From an uncultured Planctomycetota bacterium (GTDB lineage: Bacteria; Planctomycetota; Planctomycetia; Gemmatales; Gemmataceae): a stretch of 64,000 nucleotides of DNA. The position numbers were made by a program, and so were the translations under genes. The stretch covers positions 17,325 through 81,324 of the forward strand of contig CAWKHF010000013.1 in the NCBI GenBank assembly GCA_963849325.1. The letters are read 5' to 3'. Of this stretch, positions 35,058 to 40,835 are shown piece by piece (positions within the stretch are counted from its first letter, which is position 1; each line of letters opens with the position of its first letter). Under the pieces are notes generated by a model. The model searched no databases. It saw only the letters and a program-made list of their open reading frames with translations, and was not told the origin of the DNA.

Positions 35058-35558
35058 ATGTGGACAGCCCTGGTGGTGAGTTTGGTGCTCGGCGCTCCGC
35101 CGACGAAGGAGACCCCGGCCAAACGGGACGAAGACCGGGACTTGAAAATCCTGGCTCGCGGCGTCTGGCCCGTCCGTCAGCGGACGCCGGCGCAGCTGGT
35201 AATCCGCAACGGCGAAGAGCTGGCGCTGGCCCATCGCATCGACGCGGAGCACGCCAAGCAGATGCGCATGCAGATGGCCACCGAGAAGGACGTTGCCGCC
35301 CTGCTCAAGGTCAAGACCATCGACTGGAGAAAGCACATGCTCGTGGTTGTCGCGGCCGGCACACGACCCACGGGAGGCTATGGCGTGGAAGTGCTCACGC
35401 TGCCGATCCGGGAGAAGTCCCTCACCATACACTGGAAGCTCAACCGTCCCGCGCCGGGCTCGGTTGTGTCGCAGGGGATGACGTATCCGGCGCAGATGGT
35501 GCTGGTCGAGTGCTTCAAAGGTACCGTCCAATTCAACCCCCCCATCAAGGATCGGTGA
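35058..35558 (+). CDS. Secreted PrcB C-terminal-like domain protein
   Basis: Signal peptide; IDWRKHMLVVVAAGTRPTGGYGVEV...QGMTYP. Confidence 0.7.
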   Translation: MWTALVVSLVLGAPPTKETPAKRDEDRDLKILARGVWPVRQRTPAQLVIRNGEELALAHRIDAEHAKQMRMQMATEKDVAALLKVKTIDWRKHMLVVVAAGTRPTGGYGVEVLTLPIREKSLTIHWKLNRPAPGSVVSQGMTYPAQMVLVECFKGTVQFNPPIKDR

Positions 35559-35566
35559 AGGGGCAA

Positions 35567-35637
35567 TATGGTTTAGGGTTTAGGGTGAAGAAGGGGAGCC
35601 TGGCCGATGTCCCGAACCCTCCTACCCTAAACCCTAC
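35567..35637. repeat. Second, degenerate TTTAGGG palindromic element
   Basis: TATGGTTTAGGGTTTAGGGTGAAGAA...ACCCTAAACCCTAC; shares the TAGGGTGAAGAA junction with the 4604 copy. Confidence 0.88.
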
Positions 35638-37229
35638 CGAGACGGCCGAGGCGGCTCGACACCTTGCAGCCTCAGCGTGCTCACCGCCTTGGTTTCCACG
35701 TCGATCACCTGGATACGGTGGGCGTTGGTGTCGGCGACATACAGCTTGCCGTTGGCGTAGCTGATGCCGCCCGGCTCGTTGAACAACTTCGTCTTCTTGT
35801 CGCCCACGAAGGTCGTGCAGGCGCGCGTGCTCGGATCGAGCACCTTGATCTTGCTGTTGTAGGTGTCGGCCACGTACAGCTTGCCCTCCACGAAGACGAT
35901 GCCCAGCGCATGTTGCAGCCGCGCTCGCGGGCCGACGCCGTCGTCGTCGCCGAAGTCGAACAGGCCGGTGCCGACCAGCGTGGACACGTCGCCCTTGCCG
36001 TCGAGGGGGACGGCGCGGATGGCGCTGACCTCGCTGTCGGCGACGAACAGAGTCAGAGCATTGGCCGCCAGGCCGCTGGGCTGAGCGAAACAGCTGCCCG
36101 GCCGCGGCCCGTCCACCAGGTTCTCGAAGCCGGTCCCGGCGAAGGGGACGACCACGCGCTTGACCAAATCCATCACCCAGATTTGATGGTGGCCGGCCAT
36201 GGCGATGTACAGATAGCCGTCGCGGACGAGCAGGCCCCACGGGCTGTTCAAGCCGGTACTCAGGGCCGGGCCGCCGCGGCGGATGTCCGTGCCCTGGCGG
36301 CCGACGCCGGCGACGACTCGCACCGTCTGCTTGCGCAGGTCGAGGGCGCGGATCATGTGGTTCTTGCAATCGGCCACGTACAGCGTCTGACCGTCGAGGG
36401 CCAATCCCTGCGGGTCGTTGAACGAGGCCCGCCCGAAGGGACCATCGGCGTGGCCCGGCTTGCCGATGCCGGCGATGGCGAGTTTCTTGCCGTCCAGGTC
36501 GGTGACGACGATGCGGTGGTGCGTGCTGTCGGCGATGAACAGTCGTCTGCCAGCAGCGTCGGCCAGCACCTTGCCGGGGAAGTACAGCGGACTGTTCGTC
36601 GCCTTCTCCGCCTTTTCCTTGGTGAAGTGGATCGGCTTCTCGTTGAGCGTGCGGTTGGCCCGGTGAGTGCGGATGAGCTTGTCGATGACCGGCACGGCGT
36701 CGTGGTAGATGTGCTCGAGCTTCGAGCCGGCGACGATGAAGCCCTCCGGGTCGATCACGGCCACGGTCGGCCACGAATCGACGCCGTAGGCCGTCCAGAT
36801 TTTGCGATCGGCGTCGTTGACGACCGGGTGGTCGATCTCGTAGCGCTGCATCGCCTTTTCGATACTTTTAGGGTCTTTTTCGTTGTCGAACTTCGGGGAG
36901 TGGACGCCGATGACGACCAGTTCGTTGGGATACTTCTTCTCCAGCCTGACCAGGTCGGGGAAGAGGTGCAGGCAATTAATTCAGCACAGCGTCCAGAAGT
37001 CGAGGAGAACGATCTTGCCGCGCAGGTTGGCGAGCTTGATCGGCTTATCGCTGCCGAGATAGCCAACGGCGCCATTGAGTTCGGGGGCCTTGATGCGCTC
37101 GGCCGCCTGGGCATGTACGTGCGGCAGAGCCGACGAGGGTAGGCCGGCAAGGGTCAGGCCCACACAGACGGGAAGTGCGATGGCGAAGAGTCGCCGACGC
37201 ATCCGGTCCGATGAGAAGAAGGTACACAT
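35634..37229 (-). CDS. Exported thioredoxin-like + NHL-repeat protein (NHLRC2/SOQ1-like); probable selenoprotein, TGA at 36983-36981
   Basis: ORFs 36981..37229 and 35634..36851 share a frame. Read-through gives LDFWTLC-U-INCLHLFPDL..IGVHSPKFDNE, followed by NHL repeats (FNDPQG, LNSPWG, FAQPSG, LQHALG, FNEPGG). Confidence 0.88.
36935..36964 (-). promoter_or_regulatory. Candidate bacterial SECIS element
   Basis: mRNA UCUUCCCCGACCU-GGUC-AGGCUGGAGAAGA: 11 of 13 pairs, loop starting with G, loop 29 nt downstream of the UGA. Confidence 0.65.
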
Positions 37230-37410: not shown

Positions 37411-37695
37411 TCAAAGATCGCCGAGTTGGTCGCGATACTTTTCCAAGATCATGTCCAAACCTTCGCGGATCAGGTCGGCCTTGCTACGCTCCAGACGTAT
37501 CGCGGCTTGCTTCACTTTGGCGAGCTTTTCGGGTTCGATGGAGTAGCTATCGAGGATCTTCCGGCTCTTGATCTGTTCCCGCCGATGCGGATCGAGAGGG
37601 TGGACGGTGCTGTCCCCCAGACCCTCCGCGATAATAAGGACGGTATCGAGACTGTCGCTCCGGGGCATTTCGGAGTTGTGTTGCGGCTGACTCAT
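37411..37695 (-). CDS. Ribbon-helix-helix DNA-binding protein
   Basis: SYSIEPEKLAKVKQAAIRLERSKADLIREGLDMIL. Confidence 0.8.
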   Translation of the reverse strand: MSQPQHNSEMPRSDSLDTVLIIAEGLGDSTVHPLDPHRREQIKSRKILDSYSIEPEKLAKVKQAAIRLERSKADLIREGLDMILEKYRDQLGDL

Positions 37696-38087
37696 GGTGT
37701 CTCCTTCTTTACGAATACCTGAACTGTTCGCTGGGCGATGATATCTCCATCTGCCAAGAGACGAACTTGATAACGTCCTTCCACGGGGAAAGACAGGGAT
37801 CCACGAAAGAGGACGCGGACCTCCTGGAGAGGATCGGAGAAAGTCGCCGGAAGATCGCGGGTCAAGAGTTCATCGAGCGTATCGGGCCGCACAACTTCCA
37901 AGCGGATCTGGCCGTCACCGAGGCCATCTGTGAGCCACGCATAAACAATGAAGCGCTGAGGTTCGGAAGGAACCGCTTTCACTCGCAAGCGCGTTAAACA
38001 GTTGACGAGGGTGATGTTGTGCGTCTTCTCCTCGACGATTACCTGCTCGCACACGGCCAGTCCTGTGGCTGCAGGTCGCTGAATCAT
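37692..38087 (-). CDS. Small beta-rich hypothetical protein (DUF6941-like)
   Basis: AVCEQVIVEE..ITLVN..FPVEGRYQVRLLADG; its stop overlaps the RHH start (ATGA). Confidence 0.65.
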   Translation of the reverse strand: MIQRPAATGLAVCEQVIVEEKTHNITLVNCLTRLRVKAVPSEPQRFIVYAWLTDGLGDGQIRLEVVRPDTLDELLTRDLPATFSDPLQEVRVLFRGSLSFPVEGRYQVRLLADGDIIAQRTVQVFVKKETP

Positions 38088-39568: not shown

Positions 39569-40835
39569 TGGACTGCTCCCCAAAAAGTGGTCCAGGTGCT
39601 ATGAGAGTCTCTGAGGCCCTTCGCGGGCCAGGAGACGAACCATGAAACGACACACGGCCGAAGAGATCATCCCCAAGCTGCGACAAGCCGAGGCCGACCT
39701 CGCCCAAGGCTTGACCATCGCCCAGGTCTGCCAACGCCTGGCCATCAGCGAGCAGACCCTGCATCGCTGGCGCAACCAGTACGGCGGACTCAAGGCCGAC
39801 GAGGCCAAACGCCTCAAGGAACTGGAAGCCGAGAACGCACGCCTCAAGCGTCTCGTCGCCGAGCTGGCCCTGGACAAGCAGATGCTCCAGGAGGTCGCCC
39901 AAAAAAAGTGCTGACCGCCGCCCAGCGTCGCCAGGCCGTGCGTCAACTCCAGGAGACCTTCGGCGTGTCGCAACGTCGCGCCTGCCGTGTGCTGGGGCAA
40001 CCACGCTCCACGCAGCGGCAGACGCCCAAAACCTCCGAGGAGGAGGGGCGGTTGGTGCGGCGGATGTTGGAGATGGTGCGGCAGCATCCGCGTTGGGGCT
40101 ACCGCCGCATCACGGTGTTGCTGCGGCGGGAAGGCTGGCGTGTCAACCGCAAGCGGGTGTACCGGCTGTGGCGGCAGCAAGGGCTGAAAGTGCCGCGAAA
40201 GCAGCGAAAAAAGCGGCGGCTGGGTCACAGCGGCAACAGTTGCGTGCGGCGGCCGGCGGAGCACAAGGACCATGTGTGGACGTGGGATTTCCTGCACGAT
40301 CGGACGAGCGACGGCCGGCCTTTGAAGTGGTTGACGCTGATCGACGAGTACACGCCGCGAGTGCTTGGCGTTGGAGGTGGATCGGGGCATGACGGCCCAG
40401 GCGGTGAAGACGGTGCTGGCGGGCGTGGTGCAGCAGCGTGGCGTGCCGGTGCATATCCGCAGCGACAACGGCTCGGAGTTCATCGCCGCGGCCATCCGGA
40501 CCTGGATGACGGCGGCGGGGTTGGAGACGTTGTACATTGCTCCGGGGGCGCCGTGGGAGAACGGCTACGCCGAGTCGTTCAACAGCAAGGTGCGGGACGA
40601 GCTGTTGAACGCGGAGGAGTTTGGCAGCGTGCTGGAGGCGAAGGTGCTGGCCAAGGAGTGGCGGCAGGAATACAACCATGTCCGTCCTCACAGTTCGTTG
40701 GGGTATCGGACGCCAGCGGAGTTCGGGGAGATGTGTCCTCGGCCCGACTCCGCTGCGCTACGCCGGGCCGAGGACACATCTGTAACGATTGATCCGACTC
40801 TCACAGCGCCTGGTACATAAAATGGGGGCAAGCCA
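39569..40835 (+). mobile_element. IS3-family insertion sequence (1267 bp) with 4-bp target duplication CGCG
   Basis: TG...CA ends with imperfect IRs (TGGACTGCTCCCC..CCAGG / CCTGG..GGGGGCAAGCCA); CGCG at 39565-68 and 40836-39. Confidence 0.95.
39642..40820 (+). CDS. IS3 transposase OrfA (39642-39914) / OrfB, programmed -1 frameshift; extra frameshift near 40355
   Basis: HTH + leucine zipper OrfA; A7G slippery site at 39901-39908; DDE segments WTWDF, SDNGSEF and ENGYAESFN. Confidence 0.93.

Follow-up and report, generated by a model that had tools for sequence, protein, structure and literature searches.

Does the minus strand of the 64,000-nucleotide (nt) window analysed here (the whole stretch taken from contig CAWKHF010000013.1 of GCA_963849325.1, an uncultured member of the Gemmataceae in the phylum Planctomycetota) hold, between positions 37229 and 35634, an interrupted gene or one selenoprotein gene that is read through a TGA? 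The source assembly consists of 8.16 Mb in 14 contigs, is 84.7% complete, and has the window on contig 13. The listing of open reading frames (ORFs) cuts the gene at the TGA into pieces of 82 amino acids (37229..36981) and 405 amino acids (36851..35634). A previous interpretation, made from the letters of the window and here called the sequence-only reading, had proposed that a single in-frame TGA splits one gene of 531 amino acids, and translation of the frame confirmed this: the TGA at 36983-36981 is the sole internal stop, and reading through it yields 531 residues with the segment ...LDFWTLC-U-INCLH... The ATG at 37202 (Met10) may be the true start instead of 37229, because the alignments of most orthologues begin at residue 10. 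Taking together the comparisons described below, we consider it very probable that the frame 37229..35634 is one selenoprotein gene in which UGA is decoded as selenocysteine (Sec).

The codon was compared across genomes in a six-frame search of 40 relatives, with family membership (Gemmataceae) assigned by source names. All 8 same-genus loci (71-79% protein identity) likewise carry TGA at this codon in a frame that continues past it, and read WTLC-U-INC, whereas each of the 21 other loci read (53-65% identity) has the cysteine (Cys) codon TGC or TGT at this position, so that the Cys/TGA alternation for which the sequence-only reading had proposed an alignment is indeed found. Moreover, genomes of this genus combine a Sec gene with a Cys paralogue at ~65% identity. 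Pairing of Sec with Cys in homologues classically marks a catalytic redox residue, and here it lands on the CCINC motif of the NHLRC2/SOQ1 family. Two of the homologues (L056 in genome G231 and L062 in G074) also show extra in-frame stops away from the active site, which we read as probable assembly errors because both genomes come in few contigs and with low completeness.

The Sec form extends well beyond the genus. At the DNA level the pattern W-T-x-C-TGA-I-N-C was found in 19 of 252 family genomes, representing 9 of 90 genera, and the reversed control pattern gave 0 matches. A looser pattern matched 13 of 401 genomes of a phylum sample, the window's own included; 10 of the other 12 are true cases with 437-450 open codons downstream, and the chance matches comprise 3 loci in 2 genomes. 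A species-wide scan (one genome per species, bacteria and archaea) listed 80 of at least 118 stretches. Among these matches listed, 75 are true loci from other species (71 called by a strict motif test and 4 by eye, the latter being cut by a contig end or different in one motif residue) and 5 are chance matches. Judged by record title, the 75 true loci among the matches listed comprise 58 from Chloroflexota, 8 from Planctomycetota, 2 from Rokubacteria, 2 from NC10/Methylomirabilales and 1 each from Dormibacterota, Actinomycetes and Acidobacteria, with 2 lacking a lineage in the title.

These counts bear directly on a rival view, in which the locus is a pseudogene and its TGA stems from a nonsense mutation or from a sequencing error. 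The assembly does carry indel-type lesions elsewhere, namely two frameshifts in selA and one in selB, and the Cys paralogue on C12 is spread over several frames. However, the same TGA is present in 18 other family genomes, in 10 genomes of the phylum sample and at 75 loci among the matches listed, and this recurrence at one codon in dozens of independent assemblies excludes a sequencing error or a private nonsense mutation. The frame is, furthermore, open on both sides of the TGA at about 70-79% protein identity, and synonymous changes pile up before the TGA and become scarce immediately after it. We therefore see virtually no chance that the locus is a pseudogene or an error. In the reads, no public run contained more than 9% of the sampled words of the window's assembly, and the four public runs compared hold relatives only, with TGA and TGC forms mixed at the codon. 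Contigs from three metatranscriptome libraries, again from relatives, span the TGA region, one of them with 3 differences per 106 nt across the TGA and the hairpin; they lend weak support, transcription not being proven and DNA carry-over being possible.

The suppressed synonymous variation coincides with a hairpin that has the features of a bacterial selenocysteine insertion sequence (SECIS) element. It starts 17 nt past the TGA and has its loop 29 nt past it, and its stem consists of UCUUC/GAAGA, a C.A mismatch, and then CCGACCU/AGGCUGG with one A.C mismatch. The sequence-only reading had placed a hairpin with a GGUC loop at 36964-36935, 29 nt after the TGA, and this structure reappeared in the centroid fold. 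The bacterial model behind bSECISearch, as given in the available part of PMC13188914 (Fig. 2 legend), has a loop of 3-9 nt and an upper stem of 4-16 bp; the same source gives a G in the first two loop positions, a spacing of 16-37 nt and a minimum free energy (MFE) of ≤ -7.5 kcal/mol. The window element agrees with this model on all four counts (loop GGUC, stem of 7 positions, 29 nt, MFE of -11.6 to -12.4 kcal/mol). No details on loop nucleotides were found in PMC4513850.

Synonymous conservation within the gene is highest over the 18 codons that follow the TGA. Among the nine closest Sec loci there is hardly any variation in the 55 nt behind the TGA, even at third codon positions, whereas the flanks, and the same stretch in Cys genes, are freely variable. 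Over codons for invariant amino acids, the pairwise mean identity of synonymous codons in these nine loci was 0.86 in 18-codon windows at the TGA compared with 0.61 outside, and the two windows starting on the TGA and one codon earlier tied for first place among 249 sliding windows. Within the family, a tetraloop hairpin forms at this position in all Sec loci (20/20). In line with what the sequence-only reading implied, orthologues with TGA keep a G-first tetraloop at the same distance.

The hairpin occurs in two unrelated sequences, CCGACCU-GGUC-AGGYUGG (encoding P-D-L-V-R-L) and ...CCGC-AGUU-GCGG... (encoding P-Q-L-R), with the loop beginning 29 nt after the TGA in the GGUC type and 25 nt after it in the AGUU type. 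The GGUC type was seen in Planctomycetota alone, mostly in the window's family, and the AGUU type in most other lineages. The 75 true loci among the matches listed divide into 60 with the AGUU type, 2 with the GGUC type and 13 in which a different hairpin occupies this position; the MFE is ≤ -7.5 kcal/mol in every one of the 75. In nine AGUU-type sequences pair 25-36 is formed in every case, as CG in 4, GC in 3 and GU in 2; of the cells of this stem, 81% are paired compared with 68.6% after shuffling (a level reached by 1 of 500 shuffles), and every slid register scored lower. The covariation that the sequence-only reading proposed to look for is present as compensatory pairs in the AGUU class, and the core of the window's own type is conserved without covarying. 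Among the matches listed, an AGUU-hairpin Sec form without a signal peptide (L105-L184) is common in Chloroflexota, especially Dehalococcoidia (a SAR202 record among them), with further occurrences in Rokubacteria, NC10, Dormibacterota, Actinomycetes and Acidobacteria, and because of this distribution the Sec-form protein is a multi-phylum one.

Decoding of UGA as Sec needs a dedicated machinery, and here the check suggested by the sequence-only reading gave a positive result, as tRNA-Sec, selA, selB and selD are all present in the genome. A tRNA-SeC with anticodon tca scored 72 bits, selA 287 bits, the adjoining selB 314 bits with the C-terminal part included, and selD 387 bits. The same genome has a formate dehydrogenase alpha gene (G000:C10:540688-543804; 1038 bits over the joined match) with one in-frame TGA in the context ...ARI-U-HSASVPG..., and this formate dehydrogenase is a classical selenoprotein of this genome. 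A small TlpA-like gene (G000:C5:286676-286951) likewise has an in-frame TGA, at DFWASY-U-GPC, with a hydrophobic N-terminus before it; we regard it as a candidate second thioredoxin-fold selenoprotein. Each of these two genes has a stable predicted fold after its TGA, and the 48 nt following the TGA of the TlpA-like gene fold to -18.2 kcal/mol.

The machinery also bears on whether the UGA could be read through without Sec, by near-cognate tryptophan or cysteine insertion or as a reassigned codon. Low-level read-through of UGA does occur in bacteria, which we count in favour of this alternative, as we do the broken selA and selB frames of the assembly. A reassigned codon does not fit the observation that TGA is the ordinary terminal stop in 5 of the 9 closest orthologous frames. 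Moreover, plain read-through would require neither the placement of the UGA on a redox Cys nor a conserved SECIS-type hairpin, and the genome combines the full Sec machinery with a classical Sec-type formate dehydrogenase gene. We give read-through without Sec a slight chance only.

Several observations weigh against decoding of the window gene as Sec. Taken by itself the hairpin is at chance level (z-score of -0.48 for a 71-nt stretch; 56 of 200 shuffles fold as well), and since the single sequence does no better than its shuffles, the weight of the hairpin comes from the cross-genome comparison. In favour of the element, the 48-nt stretch folds more stably in the 20 Sec loci (mean MFE -13.6 kcal/mol) than in the 21 Cys loci (-7.3 kcal/mol; Mann-Whitney p 1.7e-6), but this comparison and the shuffle controls use kin sequences, so that their significance is overstated. 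The window-type core is nearly invariant and hence offers no two-sided compensatory changes; the variation seen consists of A.C to A-U, C to U (giving G-U) and one pair-breaking G to A. Other genera have not retained its lower stem, UCUUC/GAAGA, and an Rfam scan of the region with E up to 10 returned three chance-level hits and no SECIS family. On the side of the machinery, selA carries two frameshifts and selB one in the window's assembly (C12:1294158-1297540). Of five further genomes of the genus, 4 hold an intact selA (the remaining one, 95% complete, gave no match) and all 5 an intact selB; because of these copies we take the frameshifts to be assembly indels, without proof, and decay in this strain is conceivable. 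In 2 of 5 other Sec-form genomes (G016, 95% complete, and G062, 82% complete) the search recovered no tRNA-Sec, with 150 candidates scored per genome out of more than 1000. Finally, NHLRC2 was inactive in an insulin-reduction assay and the chemistry of the family is unsettled, according to the portion of PMC6107167 at hand.

The encoded protein has the hallmarks of the NHLRC2/SOQ1 family as judged from its sequence, namely an N-terminal thioredoxin-like domain with a CC(I/V)NC-type motif and a cis-proline, followed by a predicted six-bladed NHL propeller. The thioredoxin domain matched the Pfam families Thioredoxin_8 (2e-14), AhpC-TSA (1e-11) and Redoxin (2e-6). Searches of PDB sequences returned the lumenal region of Arabidopsis SOQ1 (7djj, E 4.9e-114, residues 49-530) and human NHLRC2 (6gc1, E 3.2e-103, residues 46-520), the propeller-only structures 7djm (SOQ1) and 6g7w (NHLRC2) aligned over residues 211-530, and the thioredoxin part alone matched DipZ (2hyx, E 4.5e-22), ResA (~1e-12 to 4e-13) and TlpA. 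In these alignments the redox motif is C82-U83-I-N-C86, the cis-Pro motif is W153-P154-T155, and U83 stands opposite the second Cys of CCINC in both SOQ1 and NHLRC2. The propeller repeats, the kinship with NHLRC2/SOQ1 and the position of the TGA on the first Cys of CxxC, all part of the sequence-only reading, were borne out in this way by Pfam and PDB alignments. The C-terminal domain of SOQ1 and NHLRC2 is absent, as residue 531 is the last and is aligned to residue 520 of the 667-residue SOQ1 construct. None of the NCBIfam equivalogs for ResA, TlpA and StoA scored above its cut-off (the best, ResA, reached 53.7 bits against 170), and the only selenoprotein-specific NCBIfam match, WAxxUGC_long, scored 22.8 against a cut-off of 300.

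With the domain boundaries in hand, the possibility can be weighed that translation ends at the TGA and that the functional product is the downstream NHL protein, made from an internal start. Public annotation appears to favour it, with 57 of the best 120 public protein hits being calls of this kind that start 2 to ~40 residues after the TGA, under names such as 'DNA-binding beta-propeller fold protein YncE' and 'thioredoxin-like domain-containing protein, partial' (NCBI record). However, the starts of these calls vary, are not conserved and fall inside the thioredoxin fold, thereby halving the domain, and the 80 upstream codons, which encode the first half of that domain and the predicted export signal, are conserved in frame. 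Cys homologues, moreover, are single full-length proteins. An internally started product is very improbable on these grounds, and we continue with the full-length selenoprotein.

The N-terminus probably acts as a cleavable signal peptide of the Sec type that sends the product to the periplasm. Orthologues of the GGUC type begin in a comparable way; in Sec forms of the AGUU type the N-terminus is short and carries no such signal, and these proteins probably stay in the cytoplasm. Export by the twin-arginine translocation (Tat) system was considered on account of the MRRRLF of the window protein and rejected: several same-genus orthologues lack RR (e.g., MSRFLRATVLP and MFRHLRVLVLP), and because the twin arginine is not conserved the general Sec pathway appears more likely. 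As an electron source for exported members of the family, a transporter of the DsbD/CcdA type is suggested, though not shown, by the surroundings of the Cys-form paralogue: this CCINC-type gene (G000:C12:91751-94600), which is split over several frames, precedes the genome's only DsbD_TM (CcdA-like) match by ~0.9 kb on the same strand.

From the conservation and the gene set, the following mode of action can be proposed. SelB carrying Sec-tRNA(Sec) would bind the in-frame hairpin at 36964-36935 as the ribosome reaches the UGA and would deliver Sec at 36983-36981 in competition with release factor 2. By analogy with the homologues, C-U-I-N-C would lie at the mouth of the cleft between the thioredoxin domain and the six-bladed propeller; in the NHLRC2 structure the active site is at the N-terminus of the first thioredoxin-fold helix and faces the propeller cleft (PMC6107167, available part). 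The selenolate of U83, in the place of the attacking N-terminal Cys of CxxC, would hit an oxidised group of a propeller-bound client (a disulfide, a sulfenate or possibly a methionine sulfoxide). Resolution of the adduct by C86 or its neighbour C82 would leave a selenenylsulfide, which a membrane electron transporter of the CcdA/DsbD type would re-reduce. For SOQ1, methionine-sulfoxide reduction that depends on the C-terminal domain has been reported (preprint 10.1101/2024.11.01.621559, in the part available); the window protein is without the required domain. The conclusion of the sequence-only reading, a Sec-containing extracytoplasmic oxidoreductase, is supported by the machinery, the Sec/Cys alternation and the conserved hairpin, and we infer both Sec insertion and export. 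A vicinal Cys-Sec selenenylsulfide is found in the C-terminal redox centre of animal thioredoxin reductase, and such a selenenylsulfide could here be passed on to the CxxC partner. A wider and tentative proposal, which we think rather doubtful, is that the second Cys of CC(I/V)NC, marked out by the natural exchange of Cys for Sec, is the catalytic redox nucleophile throughout the family, the essential human NHLRC2 included, that C-U-x-x-C acts as a relay of three chalcogens, and that the UGA-hairpin cassette was moved between paralogues by gene conversion.

The last of these points concerns the history of the Sec forms, which we explored with a quick maximum-likelihood tree of 53 homologues (the row of L056 is labelled Sec in this tree through an unrelated TGA, although its site is CCINC). 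The Sec forms fell into three groups. One is a deep AGUU-type clade on a long branch, another is the window's clade with its own genus and two further genera, and the third clade (G055, G016, G264) stands next to Cys genes from its own genomes. Because the quick tree needs 3 changes of state, a single origin for every Sec form was not retained. Uniting the two GGUC-type clades costs 80 log-likelihood units (approximately unbiased test, p 0.0002), a post hoc comparison in that the group was named after seeing the tree. L060, L076 and L077 on the one hand and L059, L061 and L065-L074 on the other thus represent two Sec clades that share the same 18-nt hairpin core and P-D-L-V-R-L and lie apart in the whole-protein phylogeny. 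Repeated Sec-to-Cys loss or gene conversion of the UGA-hairpin cassette over a short tract could explain the shared core; at a resolution of 60 residues no recombinant mosaic was visible in the second Sec clade.

The surroundings of the gene comprise an aldehyde dehydrogenase, a class-III aminotransferase, a PrcB-like protein, a ribbon-helix-helix protein, a DUF6941 protein and an HD-domain protein. No conserved operon partner was found among the relatives compared, where just the ribbon-helix-helix and DUF6941 genes recur, in one or two of the closest relatives, and neither CcdA nor cytochrome-maturation genes adjoin the selenoprotein gene. The stretches 37411-38087 and 39908-40792, upstream and on the same strand, together hold a ribbon-helix-helix (antitoxin-like) gene and a DUF6941 gene with overlapping stop and start codons and, beyond this pair, an HD-domain gene and a fragment with an IS3-type HTH_21 domain. 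On the other side, the hairpin at the end of the gene (-35 kcal/mol, z-score -2.64; 2 of 200 shuffles equally stable) sits between the selenoprotein gene and the convergent PrcB-like gene (35058-35558, plus strand). It holds the repeated words GGTTTAGGGT / ACCCTAAACC and is not among the hits of a consensus terminator scan. The features are compiled in Table 1.

Table 1 Features of the predicted selenoprotein gene in the 64,000-nt window.
Feature	Position	Strand	Basis and remarks
Predicted selenoprotein gene	35634..37229	-	531 codons across one TGA; stop TAG 35636-35634; orthologues open over their full length across the same TGA
Predicted Sec codon UGA, residue 83	36981..36983	-	Aligns with the second Cys of CCINC, i.e., the first Cys of CxxC
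Putative bacterial SECIS hairpin within the coding sequence	36935..36964	-	Apical loop GGUC 36951-36948; fold, synonymous-site conservation, published model criteria
Putative N-terminal export signal, residues 1/10-42	37104..37229	-	By eye and conservation: MRRR, hydrophobic LFAIALPVCVGLTLAGL, AQA then AE
TlpA/DipZ-like thioredoxin-fold domain, residues 59-172	36714..37055	-	Pfam and alignment to SOQ1, NHLRC2 and DipZ
Six-bladed NHL-repeat beta-propeller, ~residues 208-525	35655..36608	-	Pfam NHL 7.8e-33; alignment to 7djm and 6g7w
Probable terminator without U-run	35570..35638	-	Strong hairpin overlapping the stop codon and 3′ of it; fold compared with shuffles

The locus exemplifies a widespread gene (present in at least 9 genera of the family, in other members of the phylum and, most of all, in Chloroflexota) that is systematically split or truncated by gene callers and, for want of an NCBIfam model, would not be rescued by annotation pipelines. 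It also indicates that soil Planctomycetota retain the Sec trait beyond formate dehydrogenase. The thiol-disulfide activity of the family has been doubted after negative insulin-reduction assays (PMC6107167, in its accessible part) and has lately been supported for SOQ1 (preprint 10.1101/2024.11.01.621559, as far as it was available). A bacterial Sec form would be a reactive, trappable version of the enzyme for finding clients.

With regard to selenoproteins already catalogued, full-text literature searches found no paper linking selenocysteine to NHLRC2, SOQ1 or NHL proteins. A 2026 review (PMC13188914) counts 119 prokaryotic selenoprotein families and subfamilies, none of which is named in the available part of that source for an NHL, NHLRC2 or SOQ1 architecture, and the words NHL, propeller and Planctomyc- do not appear in this review, in the BSepDB paper or in a 2022 review. 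The families were compared by description and not by representative sequences, and the catalogues may hold some such genes under a generic thioredoxin-fold label, because Pfam AhpC-TSA and Redoxin both match the window protein. The thioredoxin-fold UxxC selenoproteins listed in Table 1 of the same review (as far as its available text goes) resemble the window protein in having Sec at the N-terminal position of a CxxC-type motif within a TlpA/AhpC-like thioredoxin fold and an in-frame 3′ hairpin. By their domain identifiers (PF00578, cd02966, PF08534), these families, in that table, have the thioredoxin fold only, whereas the window protein adds the NHL propeller and the CU dyad and falls into the NHLRC2/SOQ1 orthologue group. 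Relative to the bacterial SECIS consensus, the difference is that two or more hairpins of unrelated sequence serve this family at almost the same spacing.

Among proteins of known structure, the closest comparison is with NHLRC2 (6gc1) and SOQ1 (7djj), which have the CC(I/V)NC motif in the same place and the cis-Pro WPT kept; like the lumenal part of SOQ1, the window protein is predicted to reside outside the cytoplasm. It differs from both in the predicted Sec for the second motif Cys (C-U-I-N-C) and in lacking the C-terminal domain, the HAD domain and the membrane anchor, having a cleavable-looking signal peptide only. This matches the description in PMC6107167, within the part available, that most bacterial homologues end at the propeller and few have the C-terminal domain. 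With the C-terminal domain of DipZ and with TlpA and ResA it shares the exported location, predicted for the window protein, and the expected reductant of the CcdA/DsbD type, but it reached the cut-off of no NCBIfam model of that group and has none of the adjacent genes noted above. As judged from sequence comparisons, the window gene would thus encode a typical redox selenoprotein, decoded in the typical way, in a family not so far described as using selenocysteine.

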